Of a DNA stretch of 64,000 bases, positions 28,222 to 43,563 are shown in pieces; within the stretch, counting starts at the first letter, position 1; every line of letters begins with the position of its first letter. The position numbers were made by a program, and so were the translations under genes. The notes under the pieces are model-generated. The model made no database searches and was not told the origin of the DNA. It saw nothing but the letters and a program-made list of their open reading frames with translations. Source of the DNA: an uncultured Acidobacteriota bacterium (GTDB lineage: Bacteria; Acidobacteriota; UBA6911); the NCBI GenBank assembly GCA_964506795.1, contig CAZDMR010000001.1, positions 87,975 through 151,974 of the forward strand, read 5' to 3'.

Positions 28222-29418
28222 TTATCCGCGCTTTATCGCCGCCGCCATGGCGTCGGCGGCGGCTTTTGCCACGGCTTCGACATCCGCGTCGCTGAGCGTC
28301 CTGATCGAGCTGCGACTCGGATTGCGCGCGGCCGGAGGAGCCAGCGCAATCTCGCCCGGACGCTCCTCCTGATCCGGCGGCTCGCTCCCCCCTTTTTCAA
28401 ACCGGGCATCAGGCTGGCCAAGACGCTTTTTGATTTTGAGGAGATCCTCCCGCTTCTCCGGCGGTATCTTCACGTACGGGACTCCGAGCTGCCGGCTTAT
28501 CAACAGCGTCCAGCAATAGGTTTCGAGGTTCTCCGCATACCATTCGGCATGGGTGGGAGTATCGGCCCAACAGACAATTCCGTGATTCCCGAGCAGAATG
28601 GCGTTATGGTTTTTCACGAAAGGCAGAACGGTTTCCGCAAATTTTTTGGTGCCGGGAGTTTCATAGGGCGTGACGGCAACGCTGCCGACGAACACGTCAA
28701 ACTCCGGAATGACCGGCGTGGGGGGCACGCAGCCTGTAACCGCGTATGCCGTGGCATGCGGAGGATGGCAATGCACCACGGCCTTTGCCTGGGGCACCGC
28801 CTTAAAAATTTCGAGATGAAGATAAATCTCGCTGGTTCGTCGCAAGGGCCCCGCGATTTGGTTTCCATCAAGGTCAACCAGACAGAGATCTTCCGGTCTA
28901 AGATCCGCCTTGCTTAACAGCGTGGGCGTGCAAATCACCGCATTGCCGCCGATGCGGCAGGATATATTTCCTCCGTTGCCGTCCACGTAACTGCGCTCCC
29001 AAAGCTTGCGGCCGACTGCGCAAATTTCCTCTTTTACGGATCTCGCGTTGGATGAATAAAACAGGCCGGCCGTTTCCTCAGGAAAATCGTTGAGAGCGTG
29101 CGAATCAGCGCCCGGCTTTAAGCCGTCGGCAGGCAAAGCGATTTCCAAGGCATGAAGCACGCGCTCAAGAGCACCGTGAACCTGCGGGATCACATGCGAG
29201 CGGACGACATCGCCGCCGAGCGATTTTACGGCCGCCGCGCCGGCCTCCACGGCCGCACTCACCGCGCATGGGTCCCCGGCAATGAACGCCGTACATTGAT
29301 CGCCGCCGATTTGTTTCCATCCCTTGAATTCGACGCTTGCGGCCTTCAACATGGCGTCCGCCGCCTGAACCAGCATCACGAAACCCTTCGTTTCAATCAT
29401 TCCCAAAGCTTGCTTCAT
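28222..29418 (-). CDS. Fusion of an N-terminal BMC-H (microcompartment shell) domain to a class II aldolase (putative rhamnulose-/fuculose-1-phosphate aldolase) with a C-terminal encapsulation-peptide-like helix
   Basis: Residues 1-90, MKQALGMIETKGFVMLVQAADAMLKAASVEFKGWKQIGGDQCTAFIAGDPCAVSAAVEAGAAAVKSLGGDVVRSHVIPQVH, align nearly residue-for-residue with PduA/CcmK BMC-H. Residues ~120-330 match the class II aldolase fold (GGNISCRIG..., HCHPPHATAYAV, NHGIVCWADT). The tail has a Pro-rich linker followed by the amphipathic helix DVEAVAKAAADAMAAAIKRG. Confidence 0.85.
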   Translation of the reverse strand: MKQALGMIETKGFVMLVQAADAMLKAASVEFKGWKQIGGDQCTAFIAGDPCAVSAAVEAGAAAVKSLGGDVVRSHVIPQVHGALERVLHALEIALPADGLKPGADSHALNDFPEETAGLFYSSNARSVKEEICAVGRKLWERSYVDGNGGNISCRIGGNAVICTPTLLSKADLRPEDLCLVDLDGNQIAGPLRRTSEIYLHLEIFKAVPQAKAVVHCHPPHATAYAVTGCVPPTPVIPEFDVFVGSVAVTPYETPGTKKFAETVLPFVKNHNAILLGNHGIVCWADTPTHAEWYAENLETYCWTLLISRQLGVPYVKIPPEKREDLLKIKKRLGQPDARFEKGGSEPPDQEERPGEIALAPPAARNPSRSSIRTLSDADVEAVAKAAADAMAAAIKRG

Positions 29419-29522: not shown

Positions 29523-30836
29523 ATGAAACGCTTCCTGGTTCTTTTAGCTGTGGTTTTTTTGTCCGCTTCCCAGGCTGCTTCGCAACAAGAGGGGCAATGC
29601 ATGGTTTGCCACAAGCTTGTGTCTCCCGGTCTGTACAATCAATGGCACGAATCGCAGCACGCTGTTCACGGCGTGAGCTGTGTGGACTGCCACGGCGCCC
29701 AGCAAGGCGAAGAGGATGCTTTTGAGCATCACGGAGCCTTTATCGCCACGCTTGTAACTCCCCGCGATTGCGGACGCTGCCATACCAAGGAAGCCCGCGA
29801 AGTCCAGAATTCCTATCACGCCTCCGCCGGAGAGATTCTGCATTCGCAGGACGCGTATCTCGCCCACATAGCCGGCGGGCAGCCGGCAGCCGTCGCCGGC
29901 TGCGAAAACTGCCACGGCGCCCGCATTGTCATCGATCCCCATTCGCCCAACAGGCTTTCGAAAAAATCGTGGCCCAACTCCGGCATCGGGCGCATAAATC
30001 CCGACGGATCTAAAGGATCCTGCAGCGCCTGCCATACCCGCCATAATTTTACGAAGTCCCAGGCCCGCCAGCCGGAAAGCTGCTCCAAATGCCATCTCGG
30101 CCCCGATCATCCCCAAAAGGAGATCTACGAGGAGTCCAAACACGGCAATACCTATTACACAAATGTCAAAAAAATGAACTTGGATGCCGATCCGTGGGTG
30201 GTCGGGAAGGATTATTATGCCGCTCCAACCTGCGCGACCTGCCATATGTCCGCGACCTCCGTTCTGAAATCATCGCACGACGTCGGAGACAGAATCAGCT
30301 GGACCCTGCGGCCCGCGGTTTCCGTCCACAAGGATAATTGGCTCGCCAAGCGCGAGAATATGTTCACCGTCTGCCAATCATGCCATGGAAGCTCCTTTGC
30401 CAAGGGACATTATTACCAGTACGATGCCCTGGTTCGGCTCTATAACGGCAAGTTCGCGGAACCGGCGGCGGAGATCATGAAGCTTATCAGGGCTCAGAAG
30501 CTTCTGGAGAATCCGGCGGAATTCGGCAATAAAATAGAGTGGACCTATTATGAATTATGGCATCACGAAGGACGGCGGGCGCGGCACGGCGCGGCCATGA
30601 TGGGTCCGGACTACACCTGGTGGCATGGCATTTATGAAGTCGCCCAGCATTTTTATTTCAAATTCCTTCCGGAGGCGCGCGCATTCAACGATCCGAAAGT
30701 AAACGCGGCCATTGAAAAGCTTTTGAAAGAAGATCCCATGCATCAATGGCTGTCGCGCGATACCGAAACTCTTAAAAAAGCAATTCGCTCCGGCGACTTG
30801 CAGAAACAATACGACAAACTGTTCCAACAGGACTGA
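29523..30836 (+). CDS. Octahaem c-type cytochrome, secreted
   Basis: A signal peptide and 8 CxxCH motifs in 437 aa (CMVCH, CVDCH, CGRCH, CENCH, CSACH, CSKCH, CATCH, CQSCH). Confidence 0.85.
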   Translation: MKRFLVLLAVVFLSASQAASQQEGQCMVCHKLVSPGLYNQWHESQHAVHGVSCVDCHGAQQGEEDAFEHHGAFIATLVTPRDCGRCHTKEAREVQNSYHASAGEILHSQDAYLAHIAGGQPAAVAGCENCHGARIVIDPHSPNRLSKKSWPNSGIGRINPDGSKGSCSACHTRHNFTKSQARQPESCSKCHLGPDHPQKEIYEESKHGNTYYTNVKKMNLDADPWVVGKDYYAAPTCATCHMSATSVLKSSHDVGDRISWTLRPAVSVHKDNWLAKRENMFTVCQSCHGSSFAKGHYYQYDALVRLYNGKFAEPAAEIMKLIRAQKLLENPAEFGNKIEWTYYELWHHEGRRARHGAAMMGPDYTWWHGIYEVAQHFYFKFLPEARAFNDPKVNAAIEKLLKEDPMHQWLSRDTETLKKAIRSGDLQKQYDKLFQQD

Positions 30837-30843
30837 CAACCCC

Positions 30844-32424
30844 GTGTGGAAAACCTATTGGAAATTCATCCGCGCCCTGGCGGTCAACCGTTTGGGAAAA
30901 ATCGGCGTCCTTTTGGCTGCGTTGTCTTTTGTCATTTTCCTTCTACTCGAAGCCGCCCGTATCGCCGGCATCCTAAGGAGCGCCCGCATAGGATTGATGA
31001 CTTACATGGCGTTGCCGGCGCTCTTTATCATTGGATTGCTGCTTATTCCTTTAGGATGGGACCTGCTCCGGCGGCGGACCGGCGGGACGGTTTTACAGCT
31101 TCTCAACCGGAAGTTTGACAGCTCCGAACTGGAGGGCGGCTTTTTCGGTTCCAAGCTGGTTCTCAAGGCGGGCTTCCTCACGCTGGTCGGCCTCTTGTTC
31201 GTGATATTTGCGGGCGCCCGGATGCTTTCATTTATGGACCAGCCGCGTTTCTGCGGAACCGCGTGCCACAGCGTCATGAACCCTGAATGGGTGACTTTCC
31301 AGCAATCGCCCCACGCCAGTATTCGCTGTGTGGATTGCCATGTGGGAGAGGGCGTCGATGCGCTGGTAAAGAGCAAATTAAACGGGCTTTGGGAAATCCT
31401 ATCCGTGACATTGGACCTTCTGGAACGTCCGATTCCGACGCCTATTCACCAGCTGCGCCCGGCCCGCGAAACTTGCGAGAAATGCCACTGGCCGGATAAG
31501 TTTTATGGGACCCGGCTGAAGACCTACACTCGCTATCGCACGGACGAAGCGTCGACGCCAAGCTATACAACGTTAATGCTGAAGATCGATACGGGGAAGA
31601 AAGGCGAAAAAGCCGGGATTCACTGGCACATCGGCCCCACAAATCAGATCCGCTATTCTTCGGTGGACGATGAACGCGAAAAAATAATCCGCGTTGAAGT
31701 CCTTGAGCGCAGCGCCGTCCGCAAGCGTTTCTATAATTCCGAATTGGCCGGCGCCGACGGCGGGCTCGACAACGACATGCGCGTCATGGACTGCGTGGAT
31801 TGCCACAATCGCGCGACCCATATTTATGAGGATCCCGAGCAGGCGCTGGATGAGCGGATCTCCGCGGAACGGGTCGGCCGGAATCTGCCCTTTATCAAGA
31901 GAGAAGCGCTCAGGGTCCTCACCAATGATTATCCCGATAAGGAAGCGGCAATGGCGGCCGTTGAAAGGCAGATCAAAAGCTTCTACCGCCGCTATTATCC
32001 GGAGCTGGCGGCATCGGAAGCGGCAAATATCGAGACATCCATCCGGACGCTGCAATCGATATACGGGCGCAACATTCACCCGGAAATGAATATTGAATGG
32101 GGAAGCTACTCCAATCACATCAACCATGATAAAAACGGAGGCTGTTTCCGCTGCCATAATGAAAACATGGTGTCCGACGACGGGGAACATATCTCCTATG
32201 AATGCACGTCCTGCCACTCCTTCCTGGCCTACGGTGAATCCGATCCCCTGAAGTACCTCATGCCGGTCCGGACTCGCGACCGCGAATCCGAAATGCACCG
32301 GTATTTGCGCGAAGAATTTCTAGACGGCTACGCCAAATACCGCGCGCGGCCGAGAATCCGAATCCACCCGAATTGTCTGTTGTTTCTCCGTCAAAGGCCG
32401 TGTTCGATAAGACGGCTTACTTAA
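30844..32424 (+). CDS. Membrane-anchored hexahaem cytochrome c: a NapC/NirT-like tetrahaem module plus a C-terminal dihaem extension
   Basis: 2-3 N-terminal transmembrane helices and 6 CxxCH motifs. The first four have NapC/NirT-like spacing (CGTACHS, CVDCHV, CEKCHW, CVDCHN). Two more follow (CFRCHN, CTSCHS). Confidence 0.8.
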   Translation: MWKTYWKFIRALAVNRLGKIGVLLAALSFVIFLLLEAARIAGILRSARIGLMTYMALPALFIIGLLLIPLGWDLLRRRTGGTVLQLLNRKFDSSELEGGFFGSKLVLKAGFLTLVGLLFVIFAGARMLSFMDQPRFCGTACHSVMNPEWVTFQQSPHASIRCVDCHVGEGVDALVKSKLNGLWEILSVTLDLLERPIPTPIHQLRPARETCEKCHWPDKFYGTRLKTYTRYRTDEASTPSYTTLMLKIDTGKKGEKAGIHWHIGPTNQIRYSSVDDEREKIIRVEVLERSAVRKRFYNSELAGADGGLDNDMRVMDCVDCHNRATHIYEDPEQALDERISAERVGRNLPFIKREALRVLTNDYPDKEAAMAAVERQIKSFYRRYYPELAASEAANIETSIRTLQSIYGRNIHPEMNIEWGSYSNHINHDKNGGCFRCHNENMVSDDGEHISYECTSCHSFLAYGESDPLKYLMPVRTRDRESEMHRYLREEFLDGYAKYRARPRIRIHPNCLLFLRQRPCSIRRLT

Positions 32425-33763
32425 CGCTTAAAACCAGAGAAGCGCTGTTAACCGGACGCGGTTCGCAGGAGTAGGAGGGAAGTTCCATCAGTTTGGCCAC
32501 GGAACTGGGCACCAGGCTGTAATAAAGCGTCGCCGATATGTTTACTTGCTGCGCGGAAAGCTCCTTGGGAACATTCCATGTATAGGTTTCCACTTTGGTT
32601 TCCATCGGCCCTATGCGATAGTCGATTTCGTTGTTTTTCGCCGTGAACCATTGGCAAATGGTCATCCGGCCCTGCGGATCGAAATACGGCCGCCGGAAAA
32701 TGCGGGATCCGTCAGGCACGTCCCCGTCGCGGAGAACTCCTTTATATCCGGGCGCGTCCATGATTTCTCCCATGGCCTGGTAGGCGAGGGCGTTGGAATC
32801 AGCGATGGTGAACTCTTCGCCGGGGAACCCTTTCTTATCAACGGGAATGCGATAGACGCGGCCCTCATGGTCCTTTCCTTGGACCTCCAGCCACAGCATC
32901 CTTTCTTCAGAGGATCCCGAGGGGATAAAGTGCCCGGCTTTGCCGTTATAAAGCACGGCCCGGATTACGACTTTGGACCCAGCCTTCACTTCGCTTTTGT
33001 CTGCGTATAGCGCTAGGTCTACGCTTCCTTTCAACTTTTGGCTGAAATGGGGGCCGTGAAATACATGATGGGCGATATCGTCCCTTTGTTTTCCGCCGAC
33101 GGACGATTTGCCCGGAGCATGGTGCATATGGCAATCCTGGCACCTGATCCCCTGCCCGGCGTACGGACTCGCCTTCCATTCCCGATAGGTTTCCTTAACC
33201 CAGGCGCCGTAAGGACTTTTCTCGTCATGGCAGGTGGCGCACAACTCGGGGCTCGCCGTAAAAGCCGAATATTCTGTTTCGTGAAACCGCGATTCTGCGT
33301 CCTTGCGGACCCCGTATTTTGTTTTGCCGGGATTTACCGTATAGCTGAAGTTGAAAGGCTCTTTTCCCGAGGACCCCGTCATGCTGTGGCACACGTCGCA
33401 GCTGACCCCCTCGTTGACACGGGTGCCTGCGGCGGGCGGCTTCGGCGGGATGTCGCCGGTCAAAAAAGCGAGCGGTCCGTGGCAAGCAATGCAATCCGAT
33501 TTAACTCCGGCGACTTTTTCGAGCTTGAACGCATGGGGCAAAGCCAGCTTGAAATACTCTGCGTCATCCCACGGATGAGTAAAGGATTGGGACATCAGGC
33601 TCTGTTGCCACTCCTGATAAATTTCCTTGTGACAGGCGCCGCATTGCATCGGTTTGCTGAAATCGTCGTAGGCAAAGTCCGCCTTTTCCGCAGCCTGCCA
33701 GGAAGGCAGGCCTATAAAAATCAAGGCGGCCGCCAAACCGAATGACAGCCATGTCCTTTTCAT
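32417..33763 (-). CDS. Pentahaem c-type cytochrome, secreted
   Basis: A signal peptide (MKRTWLSFGLAAALIFIGLPSWQA) and 5 CxxCH motifs. The start at ATG 33763 follows GGAGGGGG. The 3-prime end overlaps the convergent cytochrome gene by 8 nt. Confidence 0.8.
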   Translation of the reverse strand: MKRTWLSFGLAAALIFIGLPSWQAAEKADFAYDDFSKPMQCGACHKEIYQEWQQSLMSQSFTHPWDDAEYFKLALPHAFKLEKVAGVKSDCIACHGPLAFLTGDIPPKPPAAGTRVNEGVSCDVCHSMTGSSGKEPFNFSYTVNPGKTKYGVRKDAESRFHETEYSAFTASPELCATCHDEKSPYGAWVKETYREWKASPYAGQGIRCQDCHMHHAPGKSSVGGKQRDDIAHHVFHGPHFSQKLKGSVDLALYADKSEVKAGSKVVIRAVLYNGKAGHFIPSGSSEERMLWLEVQGKDHEGRVYRIPVDKKGFPGEEFTIADSNALAYQAMGEIMDAPGYKGVLRDGDVPDGSRIFRRPYFDPQGRMTICQWFTAKNNEIDYRIGPMETKVETYTWNVPKELSAQQVNISATLYYSLVPSSVAKLMELPSYSCEPRPVNSASLVLSVK

Positions 33764-33830
33764 AATCCCCCTCCAAGGCTTGACCCGCATTATTCATGAA
33801 CCTTCTGCCGCGGTTCGCGGAATAAGCGGT

Positions 33831-36658: not shown

Positions 36659-36907
36659 CTATTCCTTTTCCTTTGCCTGGTAAAAGCAGTAACCGTTTTC
36701 GTCCGGGTCCCCTTTTTCCTCCACAAGCCCGTATCTCCACATCCCCATTATCCACATCGTCACTTCGCGGGAAGGGGCTCCGAGAGTTTGCGCAATTTCC
36801 GGGATGGTCATTGCTTTTTTGTTGATGATAGAGAGGATGGCGTCTTTCATGACCATTTCATCTCTCATGATTTCGGAAATCTCGCGGTTTGTCTGATTAG
36901 TGCTCAT
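36659..36907 (-). CDS. Small (82 aa) winged-helix-like protein of unknown function inside the Hdr-like operon (DsrD-like fold is possible)
   Basis: The ORF is tightly packed between hdrA-like and hdrC-like genes, with 9-10 nt gaps on each side. It has a helix-turn-helix-like segment (IPEIAQTLGAPSREVTMWIMGMWRYGLVEE). Confidence 0.5.
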   Translation of the reverse strand: MSTNQTNREISEIMRDEMVMKDAILSIINKKAMTIPEIAQTLGAPSREVTMWIMGMWRYGLVEEKGDPDENGYCFYQAKEKE

Positions 36908-36916
36908 CGTATCTTC

Positions 36917-38629
36917 CTACGCTAATGCATCGATTGTCGCCGTGATCTGCTTATCCGTGTAACCCTTCAGATCAATGGCATCCTGGGGGCAGACCGGGAT
37001 ACAGGCCCCTCCGCCTTTGCATAGACTGCTGTCTATCCGGGCAACTTCCTTGTCTCCGGCGGCAATCTTCGTTATGGCATCATACTGGCAGGCGGCGACG
37101 CATTCGCCGCACCAGGTGCATTTTTCAGCATCCACTTCGGCGATAAAAGGATCGAGATCGACATAACCTTTCATCAATAACCCGGCGCTCTTGGAAGCGG
37201 CGGATAAGGCCGACGCAACACTTTCGGGCAGATTCTTTGGCCCCTGCGCGGTTCCGGCGATAAAAATTCCATCCACGACCGTTTCCACCGGCCTGAGCTT
37301 GGGATGGATTTCATTAAAGAAGCCGTCCTTGCCCACCGGCAATTTCAGAACATCGATGAGTTCTTCATTCTTTCTCGGAACCATGCCGACAACGAGCACC
37401 ACCATATCGGCGGGAATCTCCACATCCTCACCCGATAGAAGCCGATCCGATACGGTGACGCAAAGCTTTCCGTTCGCGCGTTTGACCACAGGCGGTTTAT
37501 CCGGCTCGTAACAGAGGAACGCGGATCCTTTGGCGCACGCTTCGTCGTAAAGCAGTTCATATTGGCCGTAGGTCCGCATATCCCGATAAAGGTGGAACTG
37601 ATGTATGTCCGGATCCGCCTTGTGAGCGCATAGCGCCGTGTGCACGGTGGTCGTACAGCAGTATCTGGAGCAGTAAAGGTTTTTCCCTCCTTCATTGGGA
37701 TTCTGCCTGCTTCCAACACAGTAGATATAGACGATGTCCTTAACGCGGCGGCCGTTATACATGATGGCGCCGTCGGATTTATCGATTAATTCGCGAAATT
37801 CCGGGAGCAACAGAACTCCCTCTTCGCCGTAGCCGTATTCCCCTTTGGCCGGCTGGTAAACCTCAAATCCGGTGGTAACGACGATGGCTCCCACATTCAG
37901 CTGCAACGAGTCGTTGTCCGGCAGTTTTATTTTTACGGCGAAATTGCCGATGCTGCCTTTCTTTTCCACGACCTCCGCGTTGGTAAAAACGGTTACGTTT
38001 TCGTTCCCGCTTATTTGTTCCTTCAGTTTTCCGATGATTTCGAATCCCAGCTTGTCGTGTGGGAACATTCTTCCCCACTTTGCCGTCCAACCGCCGACTT
38101 GCCCTGTTTTTTCAACAACAAACACATGCAATCCGAGATCGGCCAACGCCAAAGCGGAGCGCAATCCGGCGACTCCTCCCCCGACGACAAGCACCTTGGG
38201 AGTGGTCTCCATCCTAAAACTGCTGAGAGGTTCGCTGTTGCGGCATCGGGCGATACCCGCCCTGACAAGATGGATGCCTTTTTCGGTAGCGTGCTCGCGT
38301 TCCGCCCGATGAACCCAGGAGCATTGTTCCCTCAAATTAACCTGCACATACATATAGGGATTGAGCCCCGCCCGTTCAGCCGCGCCCCTGAACGTATACA
38401 GATGGAGCTTAGGAGAGCAGGAAGCAACCACCATGCCGTCCAGCTTTTCGGAATTGATATCGTCGATGATTTCTTGCTGCGCGGCGTCGGAACAGGTGAA
38501 CATGCTCGTTTTGGCGAGAACGACTCCCTCTTCGTTCTTGACCGCATCCCGCACTTTCTCCACGTCTACATAGTCCGAAATGTTTCCGCCGCAATGGCAG
38601 ATGTAAACGCCTATCCGTCTTTGATTCAT
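36917..38629 (-). CDS. hdrA: HdrA-like flavoprotein (N-terminal CxCG 4Cys cluster, FAD domain, C-terminal 2x[4Fe-4S])
   Basis: IGVYICHCGGNIS...CSPKLH matches the HdrA N-terminus. The FAD motif VLVVGGGVAGLRSA is present. C-terminal ferredoxin motifs are CTWCGECVAACQ and CKGGGACIPVCP. Confidence 0.75.
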   Translation of the reverse strand: MNQRRIGVYICHCGGNISDYVDVEKVRDAVKNEEGVVLAKTSMFTCSDAAQQEIIDDINSEKLDGMVVASCSPKLHLYTFRGAAERAGLNPYMYVQVNLREQCSWVHRAEREHATEKGIHLVRAGIARCRNSEPLSSFRMETTPKVLVVGGGVAGLRSALALADLGLHVFVVEKTGQVGGWTAKWGRMFPHDKLGFEIIGKLKEQISGNENVTVFTNAEVVEKKGSIGNFAVKIKLPDNDSLQLNVGAIVVTTGFEVYQPAKGEYGYGEEGVLLLPEFRELIDKSDGAIMYNGRRVKDIVYIYCVGSRQNPNEGGKNLYCSRYCCTTTVHTALCAHKADPDIHQFHLYRDMRTYGQYELLYDEACAKGSAFLCYEPDKPPVVKRANGKLCVTVSDRLLSGEDVEIPADMVVLVVGMVPRKNEELIDVLKLPVGKDGFFNEIHPKLRPVETVVDGIFIAGTAQGPKNLPESVASALSAASKSAGLLMKGYVDLDPFIAEVDAEKCTWCGECVAACQYDAITKIAAGDKEVARIDSSLCKGGGACIPVCPQDAIDLKGYTDKQITATIDALA

Positions 38630-41334
38630 CTATTCGCTCTCATTCTTTCCACGTATATGGCGGCCTGCACCGCCGCGGCTCCTGCATGGGCGATGGTATC
38701 GGGAATATCGCGCGCAGCCGTGGCCGAGCCGGCGGCAAAAACGCCTTCAATACTTGTCTGTCCCGGGTTGACATCCGCCTGTGTTTCCCGGACCCAGCCG
38801 CCCTCATCCGTTTCAAGGGCTTCGCTTTTAAAGACCCCAACGGCGCTGGTATCGGGAAGCAGTCCCACAGACAGAACAACCAGATCGTGCTCCGCCTGTT
38901 TCAAGCTTCCTTCTCCGCCGATGTCCTCGTAATGGACGATGAGATTGCCCCCTTTGGTTTCTTCTATCCTGGCGACTCTGCCCTTCGTCATATTGACTCC
39001 CATCGCTTTCGACTGTTCGTAAAACTCGTCGTAACCCTTGCCGAAGGCGCGGATGTCGATATAGTAAATGGTAACTTCCGCGAGAGGGAGCGCTCCCATA
39101 ATAAGCTGCGCCTGTTTGAGGGAATACATGCAGCATACCCTCGAACACTGGCGATTATTTACGGTGTAATCGCGAGAACCGGTGCAAAGCACGTAGGCGA
39201 TGTTATCCGGCATTTTGCCGTCCGACGGGCGAAGCACCCGGTTATAGGGACGCGTCGGGGCCAGGATACGATCCATCTGCATGGCCGTGATCACATTCGG
39301 ATAGCGCCCGTAACCGTAAGGTTTTTTCAGGGATGCGTCAAAAAGCTGAAATCCCGTCGAGATGATCACGCTGCCGGCTTCTGCGATTTCCTCTTTATCC
39401 TGCATATCGAATTCAATGGCATTCGCGGGACAGGCGCGGACGCACTCGCCGCATTCCGAACAGGATCCGCAGTCAAGGCATCGCGAGGCATTATAACGGG
39501 CATCTTCTTCGCTTAGCGTGGATTCGACCTCGGCAAAACTCCGCGACCGCTCAGCGGCCGGCAACAGCGCCGCCGCCCTGGACGGCTTCAAAGAAATCGA
39601 CTTCCAGCGCGCGATAACCGATTCCCTGTCCACAGCGGGCAAAGGCTCGAAATAGGCGTCCTCCAGAGGCTCTCCCCGCATCTGCCGGTCCATGAAAAAA
39701 GCCGCTCTTTTACCCTGGCCGATTGCGTCGATAATCATAGACGGTCCGGTAACATTGTCCCCGCCGGCAAAAACCGAGGGCATTGAAGTTTCCAGCGTTT
39801 TTTCATTTACCTTGATGGTTCCATTGCGATTCAATTCAAGCTCGCCGCGAAACGGCGAAGTCGTCGGCTTGAGCCCGATAGCCTTAACGACGATATCCGC
39901 CGCAGTGAGCTGTTCCGAACCTTCAATCGGCACCGGACGGGGCCGGCCTCCGGCATCCGGTTCGCCCAATTTCATCGACAAGCTTTCCACCCCCACCAGC
40001 CGTCCATCTATGCCGATGAAACGATTGGGATTCCTGAGCGTACGAAGCTCCATCCCTTCTTCCAATCCGGCCTCTACTTCCCAGGAATGAGCGGGCATTT
40101 CCGCCCGGCTGCGCCGGTACTCCACAATGACTTTCCGGGCTCCCAAACGGATCGCCACCCTGGCCGGATCCATACAGGCATTCCCTCCTCCGACCAGGAG
40201 TACGGTCTTCCCCTTAACATGGGACATTTTTCCTTCAAACGCCGCCTTGAGGAAAGACATGCAATCCATGACCCCTTCCAAGTCTTCGCCGGGCAGGGAC
40301 ATCCTCTGCGGTTCCCAGGCGCCGACCGCCACAAAAACGGAGTCAAACCCTTGCTCCTGCAAATCTTTCAAAGAGCTAACAGGAGAATTGGTGCGGATAG
40401 CAACCCCAAGAGCGGTAATGTTTTTGATATCTCTATCCAGCACACGCTTCGGCAGCCTGTATTCCGGGATTCCGTACCGCAACACGCCGCCCGCATGCTC
40501 CTGCGATTCGAAAATGGTAACTTGATATCCGCGCCTCGCCAGATGGTAAGCGGCCGAAAGCCCGGCCGGGCCCGATCCCACAACGGCCACCTTCTTGTCC
40601 AGGCGCTTTTCGGGGATTCCGTACTCCGGTTCCGGATGCCGTTGATAGTAATAGTCCACCATGAAACGTTTGATGGCCCGGATGGAGACCGTGCCGTCCA
40701 GAGCGGCGCGCGTGCAGTTTTGCTCGCATGGCGCGTAACAAGCCCTGCTTAGAGTGCCGGGGAGCGGCGCGTCTTCCATGTGAAGGCGGAATCCCTCCTC
40801 GTATTTTCCGCTTCGGACCAGGGAGACAAAACCATGGGCCTTGACTCCCGCCGGACAGGCAAAAGTGCACGGCGAGGTACCCTGCCGGTCCAGGATTGCT
40901 TTTTTCGGCACCGCCTGGGAGTATGGGATATAGGCCGCGCGCCGAGCCACCAATTGGAAATTAAACTGGTCGGGGACGGCAACCGTACAGGCTTCTTCGC
41001 ACTTTGAACACCCGGTGCATGCCGACGGATTCACATAAGTCGGCTTCTTGCGAATTTTTATGATAAATTCCCCGTTCGCCCTTTTGGCTATCTCTTTGAC
41101 TTCCGAATAAGTCAGGGTCGTAATGTTCGGGTGGTGGCTGGTGGCCGCCATTTTGGGCGTGGAAATGCAACTCGCGCAATCCAGCGTGGGGAAAACCTTG
41201 CTTAGAAGCACCATTTTGCCCCCGATACTGGCATCTTTTTCCACCAGCAACACCTGATACCCCATATCTCCCAAAGTCAGAGCCGACTCCATGCCGGCTA
41301 TGCCTCCGCCGACGATTAGCATGTCATGCTTCAT
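38626..41334 (-). CDS. HdrA-like FAD protein with an inserted GltD/NfnB-like NAD(P)H-binding module and a ferredoxin domain (902 aa natural fusion)
   Basis: The HdrA N-terminal half (MLIVGGGIAGMESA...DCASCIS) is followed by a GltD-like 2-cluster region (CTFACPAG, CYAPCEQNC) and a second Rossmann motif VAVVGSGPAGLSAAYHLARRG...GGVLRYGIPEYRLPK. Then comes a 2x4Fe4S domain (CLDCGSCSECGECVRACP), then the HdrA C-terminal half (CSRVCCMYS...GVFAAGSATAARDIP). Overlaps the downstream hdrA start by 4 nt. Confidence 0.75.
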   Translation of the reverse strand: MKHDMLIVGGGIAGMESALTLGDMGYQVLLVEKDASIGGKMVLLSKVFPTLDCASCISTPKMAATSHHPNITTLTYSEVKEIAKRANGEFIIKIRKKPTYVNPSACTGCSKCEEACTVAVPDQFNFQLVARRAAYIPYSQAVPKKAILDRQGTSPCTFACPAGVKAHGFVSLVRSGKYEEGFRLHMEDAPLPGTLSRACYAPCEQNCTRAALDGTVSIRAIKRFMVDYYYQRHPEPEYGIPEKRLDKKVAVVGSGPAGLSAAYHLARRGYQVTIFESQEHAGGVLRYGIPEYRLPKRVLDRDIKNITALGVAIRTNSPVSSLKDLQEQGFDSVFVAVGAWEPQRMSLPGEDLEGVMDCMSFLKAAFEGKMSHVKGKTVLLVGGGNACMDPARVAIRLGARKVIVEYRRSRAEMPAHSWEVEAGLEEGMELRTLRNPNRFIGIDGRLVGVESLSMKLGEPDAGGRPRPVPIEGSEQLTAADIVVKAIGLKPTTSPFRGELELNRNGTIKVNEKTLETSMPSVFAGGDNVTGPSMIIDAIGQGKRAAFFMDRQMRGEPLEDAYFEPLPAVDRESVIARWKSISLKPSRAAALLPAAERSRSFAEVESTLSEEDARYNASRCLDCGSCSECGECVRACPANAIEFDMQDKEEIAEAGSVIISTGFQLFDASLKKPYGYGRYPNVITAMQMDRILAPTRPYNRVLRPSDGKMPDNIAYVLCTGSRDYTVNNRQCSRVCCMYSLKQAQLIMGALPLAEVTIYYIDIRAFGKGYDEFYEQSKAMGVNMTKGRVARIEETKGGNLIVHYEDIGGEGSLKQAEHDLVVLSVGLLPDTSAVGVFKSEALETDEGGWVRETQADVNPGQTSIEGVFAAGSATAARDIPDTIAHAGAAAVQAAIYVERMRANR

Positions 41335-41764
41335 TAGATTTTTCCTTCGCGTCGGCTTCGAGAAGCCTTAACGAGTTCTTAAAATTTTCCATATGGGATA
41401 CAAAAGACTCCGCGCAAACAGAACAAATGGCCGCCATTTTAACCCGCTGCGCGCTGTGTCCATTTTCTTCAAGAAGCTTTTGCGCCCTTTGCGTCAAGGC
41501 GGCCGTCCGTTCGGTGCAGTCCTGGGTATACACGCAATCGCTTCCATCCGCCGCAATGAACACGCCGTCGAATCCCGCATTTACAGCGCGGAGGACCCAA
41601 CTCGGCTTTATGCTGCTTGAACAACGCAACGGTATGACAAACACCGAAGGCGAATAATGCAAGTGAGAGCTTCCGGCTAAATCAATCCCGGGATCCGAAA
41701 TTGTCTCCGTCGAGAACACAAGGATCTTGGGATCTTTCCCCTCGCTCTTTTCCCCTTCCGCCAT
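41324..41764 (-). CDS. MvhD/FlxD-like domain protein lacking the canonical first Cys pair
   Basis: KILVFSTETISDPGIDLAGSSHLHYSPSVFVIPLRCSSS...GFDGVFIAADGSDCVY aligns with MvhD (KIVVFACNWCSYAGADTAG...VMCSGR...GADGVLVGGCHFGDCHY). The CNWC pair is replaced by STET, and one of the two distal Cys is Ala. Confidence 0.6.
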   Translation of the reverse strand: MAEGEKSEGKDPKILVFSTETISDPGIDLAGSSHLHYSPSVFVIPLRCSSSIKPSWVLRAVNAGFDGVFIAADGSDCVYTQDCTERTAALTQRAQKLLEENGHSAQRVKMAAICSVCAESFVSHMENFKNSLRLLEADAKEKSNEA

Positions 41765-42018
41765 TACTTTCCTTTCTTTACGAATATTCGCGAATAACCT
41801 GCTTCCTCGATGGCTCCCAAATATTCATGGCCGACCTTTTTGGCCCATAGGGGGATATCCCTCTTAGTGCTCGCATCGGAAGAGAGCACTTCCATAACGC
41901 CCCCCACGGGAACCGCGGCGATGGATCGTTTTGCTTCCAGCAAAGGCCCCGGGCAAGCAGTCCCCCGGGCATCAACTTTTTGGGCGACTGTCAGACTTGC
42001 AAGTTCTTGTGTGTCCAT
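41764..42018 (-). CDS. tusA: TusA-family sulfurtransferase
   Basis: VDARGTACPGPLLEAKRSI carries the TusA CPxP active-site motif. 84 aa. The stop overlaps the start of the MvhD-like gene as ATGA. Confidence 0.85.
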   Translation of the reverse strand: MDTQELASLTVAQKVDARGTACPGPLLEAKRSIAAVPVGGVMEVLSSDASTKRDIPLWAKKVGHEYLGAIEEAGYSRIFVKKGK

Positions 42019-43191: not shown

Positions 43192-43563
43192 TTAAAAGGA
43201 AATTATTTTATCGGCTTCGCTGATTTCCTCATGCACGCTGATCGCCGATCCATCCAAAGTGCCTTCCACCATATCCTCCCCGCTCAGGCCGCGAGCCTTA
43301 ATACAGGGCCCGCAATAAATAACTTTCCCTCCGTCGGAAAGGAAACTATCCATCAACGTATTCAATGGGAGCCTTTCGTCGGCGTGGACCGTTTCCGCGT
43401 ATCCTTTTTTTGCCAGCAAACTGGCATCTCCCAAGAGAATGATGACGACATCGTTTTCCATGGACAGGGCAACGTTGGCAAGCGTGAAACCTATGATGGC
43501 ATCCTCAGCGCGATCGCCGGCGCCCGTTAAAATATACAGGAACTTCTGTTTTTGATCCGACAT
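43192..43563 (-). CDS. DsrE/DsrF-family sulfur-relay protein (second copy)
   Basis: 123 aa with the YILTGAGD... fold signature and an active-site Cys context (VIYCGPCIKARG). Confidence 0.7.
   Translation of the reverse strand: MSDQKQKFLYILTGAGDRAEDAIIGFTLANVALSMENDVVIILLGDASLLAKKGYAETVHADERLPLNTLMDSFLSDGGKVIYCGPCIKARGLSGEDMVEGTLDGSAISVHEEISEADKIISF

Follow-up and report, generated by a model that had tools for sequence, protein, structure and literature searches.

The stretch of DNA analysed here (the window) comprises 64,000 nucleotides (nt) of contig CAZDMR010000001.1, positions 87,975 to 151,974, from the assembly GCA_964506795.1 of an uncultured Acidobacteriota bacterium. Its minus strand carries a cluster of ten genes in the order dsrE, arsR, dsrE2-like, tusA, mvhD, hdrL, hdrA, orf82, hdrC-like and hdrB-like (Table 1). 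The product of hdrL, 902 amino acids (aa) in length, combines in one chain an HdrA-type flavoprotein of the heterodisulfide reductase (Hdr) kind and a complete NfnB/GltD-like module with sites for reduced nicotinamide adenine dinucleotide (phosphate), NAD(P)H, for flavin adenine dinucleotide (FAD) and for two [4Fe-4S] clusters. We consider it probable that HdrL represents a type of subunit in which a module of the StnC/Bfu-NfnA type splits the inserted ferredoxin domain of HdrA, and that it is paired with the product of the adjacent hdrA gene, an HdrA of 570 aa (HdrA570), in an NADPH-linked Hdr complex that acts on a sulfur carrier.

Table 1. Features of the hdrL gene cluster, segments of HdrL and cytochrome genes of the window (coordinates are window positions)
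Feature	Position	Strand	Evidence
hdrL, 902-aa HdrA::NfnL-like fusion	38626..41334	-	Intact reading frame, domain matches, AlphaFold2 model, fold matches; stop codon 38626-38628
HdrL aa 1-100, first part of thioredoxin-reductase-like FAD domain, GGGIAG motif	41035..41334	-	Query 5-107 vs 5odc_A 146-247
HdrL aa 101-151, first half of split inserted ferredoxin domain, C106/C109/C112/C116	40882..41034	-	vs 5odc_A 241-291
HdrL aa 152-624, NfnL/GltD-like module	39463..40881	-	Domain, sequence and fold matches, offset mapping onto 9bov_A
HdrL aa 625-650, second half of split ferredoxin domain, C625/C628/C631/C635-P	39385..39462	-	vs 5odc_A from 289
HdrL aa 651-902, second part of HdrA FAD domain, [4Fe-4S] motif C717...C730-x3-C734-C735	38629..39384	-	vs 5odc_A, Cys conservation
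hdrA570, complementary partner, 570 aa	36917..38629	-	Alignment to 5odc_A; start overlaps hdrL stop by 4 nt
dsrE-family gene, 123 aa, first of cluster	43192..43563	-	PF02635, E 1e-14
ArsR/SmtB-family regulator gene, 141 aa	42498..42923	-	NF033788, 57.6 bits (cut-off 55)
DsrE2-like sulfurtransferase gene, 120 aa	42113..42475	-	PF13686 and PF02635
tusA, sulfur carrier, 84 aa, CPGP motif with Cys22	41764..42018	-	PF01206, E 2e-19; Cys22 100% conserved
mvhD-like [2Fe-2S] subunit, 146 aa	41324..41764	-	PF02662 FlpD, E 3e-26; five Cys 100% conserved
orf82, small winged-helix protein between hdrA and hdrC	36659..36907	-	Weak PF13463 match
hdrC-like 2x[4Fe-4S] subunit, 102 aa	36341..36649	-	TIGR03290, E 4e-14; eight Cys 100% conserved
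hdrB-like subunit, 322 aa	35370..36338	-	PF02754 CCG at 214-298 only
Seven-haem cytochrome	29523-30836	+	
NapC/NirT-like cytochrome	30844-32424	+	
MtrC/c554-like cytochrome	32417-33790	-	

The hdrL open reading frame (ORF) starts with ATG and runs through 902 residues with zero internal stops. An identical protein of 902 aa, encoded on an NCBI contig of 232 kb, is contained in a public protein collection, and more than 120 homologues of approximately 890–930 aa are colinear with HdrL at 63–82% identity and 96–100% query coverage. Because the ORF is intact and the full-length homologues are colinear, a frameshift, a missed stop or a chimera is excluded. The notion that the long ORF is an artefact of assembly or annotation, with two genes joined by a sequencing error, was likewise rejected, as no stop or frameshift was present and the two HdrA halves are in register with the HdrA structure 5odc_A; the homologues and the 170 genomic loci described below also speak against an artefact, no point was found in its favour, and we regard it as hardly credible.

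In a search against the sequences of the PDB, residues 5–151 of HdrL align with residues 146–291 of HdrA from M. thermolithotrophicus (5odc_A), and residues 621–895 align with residues 289–565 of the 654 residues of the same protein. Models for HdrA in Pfam and NCBIfam match both flanks of the intervening GltD-type unit, which itself is matched at residues 142–641 by NF009410/PRK12771 of NCBIfam (499 bits) and by the Pfam domains Fer4_20 (residues 154–231) and Pyr_redox_2 (residues 247–541). Wagner et al. 2017 reportedly delimit HdrA residues 237–315 as the inserted ferredoxin domain; the domain layout of HdrA is also summarised in a later paper (PMC9012536). The insertion point in HdrL falls between HdrA residues ~291 and 289, which places the module inside this domain. 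Judging from the alignment, the inserted ferredoxin domain of HdrL is split by the module, not replaced: its first motif, CTGCSKCEEAC (C106-x2-C109-x2-C112-x3-C116), aligns over CTGCGQCSEVC of 5odc_A, and its second motif, CSECGECVRAC (C625-x2-C628-x2-C631-x3-C635-P), over CIECGLCAKVC. Further upstream, C53 and C56 align with Cys194 and Cys197 of 5odc_A (FPTLDCASC over FPTNDCSIC). HdrL lacks the equivalents of HdrA residues 1–145, the N-terminal domain, and 568–654, the C-terminal ferredoxin domain, and its C-terminus is the very point where the latter domain would start. Hence, as far as alignments and profiles indicate, HdrL is not a canonical methanogen HdrA: it does not have the four-domain architecture, and it scores 354, 328 and 468 bits against the HdrA equivalog models NF041778, NF041891 and NF040770, whose cut-offs are 1400, 1300 and 1100 bits, respectively.

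Across 81 aligned sequences, which come from 80 genomes, 20 cysteine residues of HdrL are conserved at 99–100%, namely C53, C56, C106, C109, C112, C116, C156, C160, C199, C203, C207, C619, C622, C625, C628, C631, C635, C717, C730 and C735; for C53, C56 and the cysteines of both ferredoxin motifs the value is 100%. The dinucleotide-binding motifs are conserved in the same alignment (GGGIAG; GSGPAG; GGGN..D followed by YRR), as is FAGGD. Within the module, C156, C160, C199, C203, C207 and K222 are the predicted Fe-S ligands. The module also has VAVVGSGPAGL as its FAD site, GGGNACMD ... YRRS as a site of the NADPH type and a relocated segment, residues 593–624, that carries RC619LDC622. HdrL is predicted to bind two FAD molecules and five [4Fe-4S] clusters: the module and the split ferredoxin domain would hold two clusters each, and the HdrA domain would hold the fifth. 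In an AlphaFold2 model computed from 57 sequences, the predicted local distance difference test score averages 83.7 and exceeds 90 across the insert, and Foldseek matches this model not only to NfnB and GltD but also to HdrA (5odh_A), in an alignment that spans 907 columns.

A preliminary description of the locus, made from the sequence alone, had already read this chain as an N-terminal HdrA half, a GltD part, a 2x[4Fe-4S] domain and a C-terminal HdrA half, and had placed the NAD(P)H module at the position of the inserted ferredoxin domain. The mapping of the domain boundaries and the fold comparison bear out the two HdrA halves, the GltD part between them and the position of the module, and both flavin sites and all cysteine ligands proved to be intact. 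The supposed separate two-cluster domain, however, turned out to be the second ferredoxin motif (C625–C635), the first being C106–C116 on the other side of the module, and the module splits the ferredoxin domain where it had been thought to replace it.

The middle region of HdrL is specifically NfnB/GltD-like, as had been proposed, and its similarity goes beyond a generic Rossmann fold. Sequence searches gave E-values of about 2e-86 to 3e-86 for NfnB (4ylf_B) and 3e-60 for GltD (6s6s), and the template modelling scores (TM-scores) normalised to the target were 0.80 for NfnB 4ylf_B and 0.78 for GltD, within a range of 0.76–0.80 for NfnB and GltD. Nevertheless, the insert is closer to the module of StnC and the Bfu-type NfnA than to classical NfnB. 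The Csac NfnA (9bov_A) is matched in sequence with an E-value of 2e-113 and the further matches among Bfu-type NfnA and StnC with 4e-105 and 2e-97, and the Foldseek E-values are 1e-51 for 9bov_A, 3e-49 for the NfnA of T. sibiricus and 3e-37 for StnC (8oh5_C). The alignment of HdrL with 9bov_A stops at residue 586 of 1178, and neither a NuoG-like nor a molybdopterin domain was detected in HdrL with Pfam and NCBIfam. The segment that opens NfnB, RNFxEV...EAxRCLxC (4ylf_B 15–43, 5jca_L 16–59), aligns with residues ~593–638 of HdrL; the RCLxC segment thus comes after the nucleotide domains, in the same placement as in StnC and NfnA, and residues 593–624 align with 9bov_A ~540–568 as well as with the N-terminus of NfnB. 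This permuted order places both ends of the module close to each other, which suits its insertion into a loop.

The same affinity is seen at the level of individual ligands. By offset mapping onto 9bov_A, residues C160, C199, C203 and K222 of HdrL are the equivalents of Cys-108, Cys-147, Cys-151 and Lys-170, the ligands published for A7, which is the FAD-proximal cluster of Csac NfnA (PMC11829005); the ligand of StnC that corresponds to K222 is K170 (PMC10482914). K222 is invariant in the 81 sequences, whereas NfnB 4ylf_B has at this place a glutamate (LERF vs IKRF), the fourth ligand of the FAD-proximal cluster in NfnB (PMC10482914). The second cluster of the module is probably bound by C156, C207, C619 and C622. 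The motifs YRR(S/T) and GGGN..MD are common to HdrL and the NADPH-binding NfnB and StnC, and the module is presumed to be specific for NADPH. The module FAD of StnC and Csac NfnA takes the hydride of NADPH and sends single electrons down an Fe-S chain, and bifurcation happens away from this FAD (PMC10482914, PMC11829005). Because HdrL has the lysine ligand and the permuted topology of StnC and Csac NfnA, its module reads as non-bifurcating, and by analogy with these enzymes we infer that it would serve as an NADPH port and not as a second bifurcating flavin.

It might be argued that HdrL is, on the contrary, a self-contained, double-bifurcating NAD(P)H:HdrA enzyme that combines an NfnB-type bifurcating flavin (b-FAD) with the HdrA FAD. 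The fold alignment with the bifurcating NfnB of T. maritima gives an identity of 40% for the insert (target-normalised TM-score, 0.80), R293 aligns with the arginine that contacts flavin N5 in NfnB (PMC10482914), and two bifurcation sites have been raised as a possibility for HdrA9-11 of the anaerobic methanotrophic archaea (ANME) of group ANME-1 (PMC9012536). However, the invariant K222 is as in StnC and Csac NfnA and not the glutamate of NfnB, and the module is nearer to the non-bifurcating ones in sequence as well as in its permuted topology. Moreover, the high-potential branch would lack its partner, since no NfnA/NfnS-like protein ([2Fe-2S] plus second FAD) was found among the ten operon genes with Pfam and NCBIfam. 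A double-bifurcating HdrL is therefore unlikely, and the idea of the preliminary description that NAD(P)H:HdrA bifurcation is accomplished by a single chain is weakened by the StnC-like insert and by the apparent dependence of HdrL on a partner HdrA.

That partner, HdrA570, differs from canonical HdrA in its own way. Its residues 1–235 align with residues 1–235 of 5odc_A and its residues 241–562 with residues 316–642, so that the inserted ferredoxin domain is missing and the N-terminal and C-terminal domains are kept. Where 5odc_A has FPTNDCSIC, HdrA570 reads FPHDKLGFE, so the Cys194/Cys197 pair is gone. Cysteine conservation was calculated for HdrA570 and for the mvhD, tusA, hdrC and hdrB neighbours; for HdrA570 it comes from 72 sequences and comprises the N-terminal residues C11, C13, C46 and C71. 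A second hdrA does lie directly downstream of hdrL, as previously described, but in the absence of the inserted domain and of the cysteine pair it is not the canonical HdrA for which it had been taken. HdrL has the reverse set, that is, C53/C56 and the sole inserted ferredoxin domain, and both end domains belong to HdrA570. The Mvh-Hdr structure shows that the N-terminal cluster of an HdrA protomer is completed by Cys197 from the opposite protomer and is situated on the route to the inserted ferredoxin domain; Chadwick et al. took the same complementarity between tandem hdrA genes of ANME to mean that their products form obligate heterodimers (PMC9012536). Since their domains and cysteines are complementary, HdrL and HdrA570 look like an obligate asymmetric heterodimer with each accessory element present once.

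The second motif in the C-terminal ferredoxin domain of HdrA570 (residues 537–547) is also unusual. It reads C-K-G-G-G-A-C-x3-C-P, with three cysteines, and is 97% conserved in the 72 sequences; 5odc_A has C-K-G-C-G-T-C at this position. One of the C-terminal clusters of HdrA570 may be a [3Fe-4S] cluster or a cluster with a ligand other than cysteine.

The genes from tusA through hdrB overlap or are separated by gaps of at most 9 nt. Because tusA, mvhD, hdrL and hdrA overlap by 1, 11 and 4 nt, the end of mvhD extending 11 nt into the start of hdrL, these four genes appear to be translationally coupled. A scan for promoters and terminators returned sites no more numerous than in shuffled sequence and was not used to set operon boundaries. 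The ArsR-type protein scores 43.6 bits against the BigR model NF040642, a weak match below the model cut-off. The HdrB-like subunit (HdrB') contains one CCG set of cysteines (C220, C255, C256, C290 and C293), which implies a single non-cubane cluster site, and resembles in this respect sHdrB3, reported with one cluster (PMC11094781). Its N-terminal half is free of cysteine and keeps the strongly conserved motifs YTGxMYQ, FGYLY and ITVDPHTT. The genes lbpA, shdrC1 and shdrB1 were not found in the operon with Pfam and NCBIfam.

The small protein encoded by orf82 has no conserved cysteine but has invariant W52, Y59 and Y76; its 926 relatives bear the name MarR family in the Prokaryotic Genome Annotation Pipeline, and a profile search of PDB sequences returned generic winged-helix matches alone, with E > 1e-5. 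Its gene occupies the position that matches shdrH in shdrC1B1AHC2B2 (PMC11094781). Three proteins of the window match successive segments of the 759-aa NCBIfam model NF045663 ('diclust_near_Sec'): the GltD-like part of HdrL at model positions 17–204, HdrC at 349–379 and HdrB' at 471–618. A single-chain GltD-HdrC-HdrB relative therefore exists, in which an NAD(P)H module is wired to a CCG-type disulfide reductase without HdrA.

The fusion is by no means confined to the window. A scan of one genome per species revealed 170 loci that encode an HdrL relative in many phyla; the best 80 of these, all with relatives that cover residues ~1–900 at 52–68% identity, are the basis of the counts that follow. 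The hosts include Ignavibacteria, Dehalococcoidia, Peptococcaceae, Kiritimatiellales (among them the isolate Pontiella sulfatireligans F21), Lentisphaerae, Acidobacteria, Actinomycetota, Chloroflexota, Sedimenticolaceae, Thiobacillaceae and others. In tblastn searches, tusA and mvhD were each present in 78 of the 80 loci, hdrA in 77, orf82 and hdrC in 73 each, and hdrB' in 54 (at a coverage threshold of at least 50%); gene order and strand were the same throughout. Classification of the flanking ORFs by jackhmmer showed that at least 43 of the 80 loci have a DsrE-family ORF no farther than 1.5 kb from the core genes and that 24 have an ArsR-type ORF immediately upstream in the same orientation; no other flanking family recurs in more than seven loci. 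Among clusters formed at 50% identity, dozens of representatives of 900–1530 aa match HdrL end to end at 34–55% identity, which makes the fusion an old and diverse family. The architecture, held in the preliminary description to be unusual, is thus fairly common: it was named HdrL in 2009, was described in ANME-1 in 2022 and is encoded in 170 species-level genomes.

About a quarter of the 80 loci (e.g., L016, L021, L035, L040, L042, L066 and L067) show a weak hdrC match, at 25–40% identity, and hdrB coverage below 50%. The operon of these loci may be a variant in which the terminal reductase subunit is different or fused.

The conserved gene order also bears on the question whether HdrL and MvhD might work independently of hdrA, hdrC and hdrB', for example as an NADPH:ferredoxin oxidoreductase, with adjacency reflecting mere co-regulation. 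Pairs of hdrL and mvhD without hdrBC do occur elsewhere, beside dsrABC or fdh, in Desulfobacterium (Db.) autotrophicum and D. dismutans (PMC2702500, PMC12142623). In contrast, hdrA follows hdrL in 77 of the 80 loci, here with a 4-nt overlap, and each of the two proteins would supply what the other is missing, HdrA570 the N- and C-terminal domains and HdrL the cysteine pair. In addition, MvhD contacts HdrA via the C-terminal ferredoxin domain (PMC9012536), which is absent from HdrL. An independent role of HdrL with MvhD accordingly appears quite improbable.

From the domain anatomy, the conservation of ligands, the complementary domain loss and the conservation of the operon, we infer a scheme for electron direction, NADPH specificity, the sulfur substrate and bifurcation or confurcation. 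NADPH would give a hydride to the module FAD, from which single electrons would run via both module clusters and both clusters of the split ferredoxin domain to the HdrA-type flavin. The N-terminal cluster of HdrA570, completed by the C53/C56 pair of HdrL, would lie on the path to the HdrA-type FAD. The single inserted ferredoxin domain of the heterodimer would carry the NADPH port, and its single C-terminal ferredoxin domain would contact MvhD, a putative third electron port for which ferredoxin is a plausible partner. From the HdrL/HdrA570 dimer, electrons would proceed via HdrC to the single non-cubane site of HdrB', whose likely substrate is a disulfide or persulfide that the co-encoded TusA or DsrE carries.

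Several points weigh against this scheme. The inserted ferredoxin domain of canonical HdrA is the low-potential exit to ferredoxin, and an NADPH site (~-320 mV) on that branch makes both the energetics and the direction of electron flow non-obvious. The substrate of HdrB' is a guess from gene neighbourhood, and hdrB' was detected in only 54 of the 80 loci, although truncated contigs account for part of the shortfall. The heterodimer and the electron path are deduced from sequence complementarity, and the assignment of C619 and C622 to the second module cluster, although probable, comes from an alignment.

The direction of electron flow is also at issue in the possibility that the complex is an oxidative relative of sHdr, which would oxidise TusA- or DsrE-bound sulfane sulfur and reduce NADP+. 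As in sHdr, tusA and dsrE genes accompany the cluster, the order hdrA - small orf - hdrC - hdrB mirrors shdrA-H-C2-B2, and the one-site HdrB recalls sHdrB3 (PMC11094781); furthermore, some of the hosts belong to Sedimenticolaceae and Thiobacillaceae. However, lbpA, shdrC1 and shdrB1 were not found with Pfam and NCBIfam in the operon of the window, and most of the hosts represent lineages of anaerobic heterotrophs (Kiritimatiellales, Dehalococcoidia, Peptococcaceae and Ignavibacteria, for example), so that an oxidative complex of this kind seems rather doubtful. Tentatively, and with considerable reserve, the operon may be taken to encode an uncharacterised NADPH-linked Hdr complex in which the asymmetric HdrL/HdrA heterodimer uses TusA/DsrE sulfane sulfur or a disulfide as the high-potential substrate, making it a reductive or NADP-reducing counterpart of sHdr. 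Such a complex would possibly be coupled to ferredoxin via MvhD by bifurcation or confurcation.

If such a complex exists, it is widespread: it occurs in more than 15 phyla, and for many of these no dissimilatory sulfur metabolism is known. It could then constitute a common but overlooked node of the cytoplasmic sulfur and redox metabolism of anaerobes at which carrier-bound sulfur is connected to NADPH and perhaps to ferredoxin. It would also offer a natural, genetically fixed asymmetric HdrA heterodimer with each electron port present once, which would be convenient for dissecting the paths through HdrA. Whereas the fused architecture itself is already known, the operon with its conserved link to TusA and the putative asymmetric heterodimer deserve follow-up: the cluster of nine to ten genes recurs in at least 73–78 of the 80 loci, in very different phyla. 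A literature search returned no open-access description of the tusA-mvhD-hdrL-hdrA-orf82-hdrC-hdrB' operon, although an earlier description elsewhere is possible; four of the papers retrieved concern other Hdr or Qmo clusters (PMC6397845, PMC10504309, PMC10553843, PMC8528874).

Genes outside the cluster are unrelated to it and encode, among others, a beta-CASP RNase, multihaem cytochromes, a LysM amidase, Usp and an RND efflux system. A protein of 398 aa (28222-29418, minus strand) consists of a bacterial microcompartment (BMC) shell domain (aa 4–79) fused to a class II aldolase domain (aa 130–303). Three adjoining genes for multihaem cytochromes c (29523-33790) are not conserved beside the hdrL operon in other genomes. 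No tRNA genes were found in the 64-kb window.

The name HdrL was introduced in 2009 for a fusion of heterodisulfide reductase and glutamate synthase that has an NADH-binding site and is co-located with mvhD (PMC2702500). In Syntrophobacter fumaroxidans, the HdrABC/HdrL/MvhD cluster (Sfum_0824) is abundant in the proteome with sulfate present (PMC5947623), and the HdrA of D. dismutans has been described as HdrL-like (PMC12142623). Likened by description, HdrL1-3 of Db. autotrophicum HRM2 and the HdrL of S. fumaroxidans represent the same type of fusion, with mvhD as a neighbour. Unlike HdrL of the window, HdrL1 and HdrL3 of Db. autotrophicum contain selenocysteine and HdrL3 has extra domains, and no linkage to TusA or DsrE has been reported for the proteins of these two organisms. 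HdrA9-11 of ANME-1, also likened by description, have the same topology as HdrL of the window, with an NfnB-like insertion of ~500 aa that breaks up the inserted ferredoxin domain (PMC9012536, 2022); in contrast to it, they are archaeal and belong to a context of methane oxidation with CoM-S-S-CoB, the disulfide of coenzymes M and B. The split of Cys197 and the N-terminal domain between HdrL and HdrA570 is paralleled in HdrA5/6, HdrA12/13, HdrA3 and HdrA4 of ANME and in the HdrA of the MetFV-HdrABC complex of Moorella (PMC9012536), but in the window, unlike in these pairs, the copy with Cys197 also bears the NADPH module and the sole inserted ferredoxin domain.

For the insert, the best matches are StnC of StnABC from Sporomusa ovata (8oh5) and NfnA of the Bfu-type NfnABC (9bov, 9n5u), with which HdrL has in common the lysine ligand, an RCLxCG segment that follows the nucleotide domains, and the NADPH-type YRR motif. 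In those enzymes, however, the module is part of a NuoG/Fdh-like subunit that feeds a bifurcating core based on flavin mononucleotide, and in HdrL it is part of the HdrA ferredoxin domain. NfnB/NfnL of NfnAB/NfnSL (4ylf_B, 5jca_L) and GltD have the same fold and the same layout of FAD, NADPH and two [4Fe-4S] clusters as the insert, but NfnB has the glutamate and an N-terminal first cysteine pair in place of K222 and the C-terminal pair of HdrL, which moreover has no NfnA/NfnS partner. With the HdrA of MvhADG-HdrABC (5odc), HdrL shares the FAD domain, the C...C-x3-CC motif, the cysteine motifs of the ferredoxin domain and the Cys194/Cys197 pair.

The operon of the window is similar to those of sHdr in the order of hdrA, a small orf, hdrC and hdrB and in its linkage to TusA and DsrE. 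It differs in having one hdrC-like, one hdrB-like and two hdrA-like genes and, as judged by Pfam and NCBIfam, no lipoate-binding protein, as opposed to the full shdrC1B1AHC2B2 set or the type II set with lbpA. Another relevant system is FlxABCD-HdrABC of Desulfovibrio, which Ramos et al. 2015 are said to have described as an NAD(P)H-linked complex with an MvhD-like subunit and to have proposed as a reductant of a protein-bound disulfide, that of DsrC (cited in PMC10553843). In that complex, the NADH site is located on a separate protein, FlxA, and electrons enter via the MvhD-like FlxD, whereas in HdrL the corresponding module is fused into the ferredoxin domain of HdrA itself.

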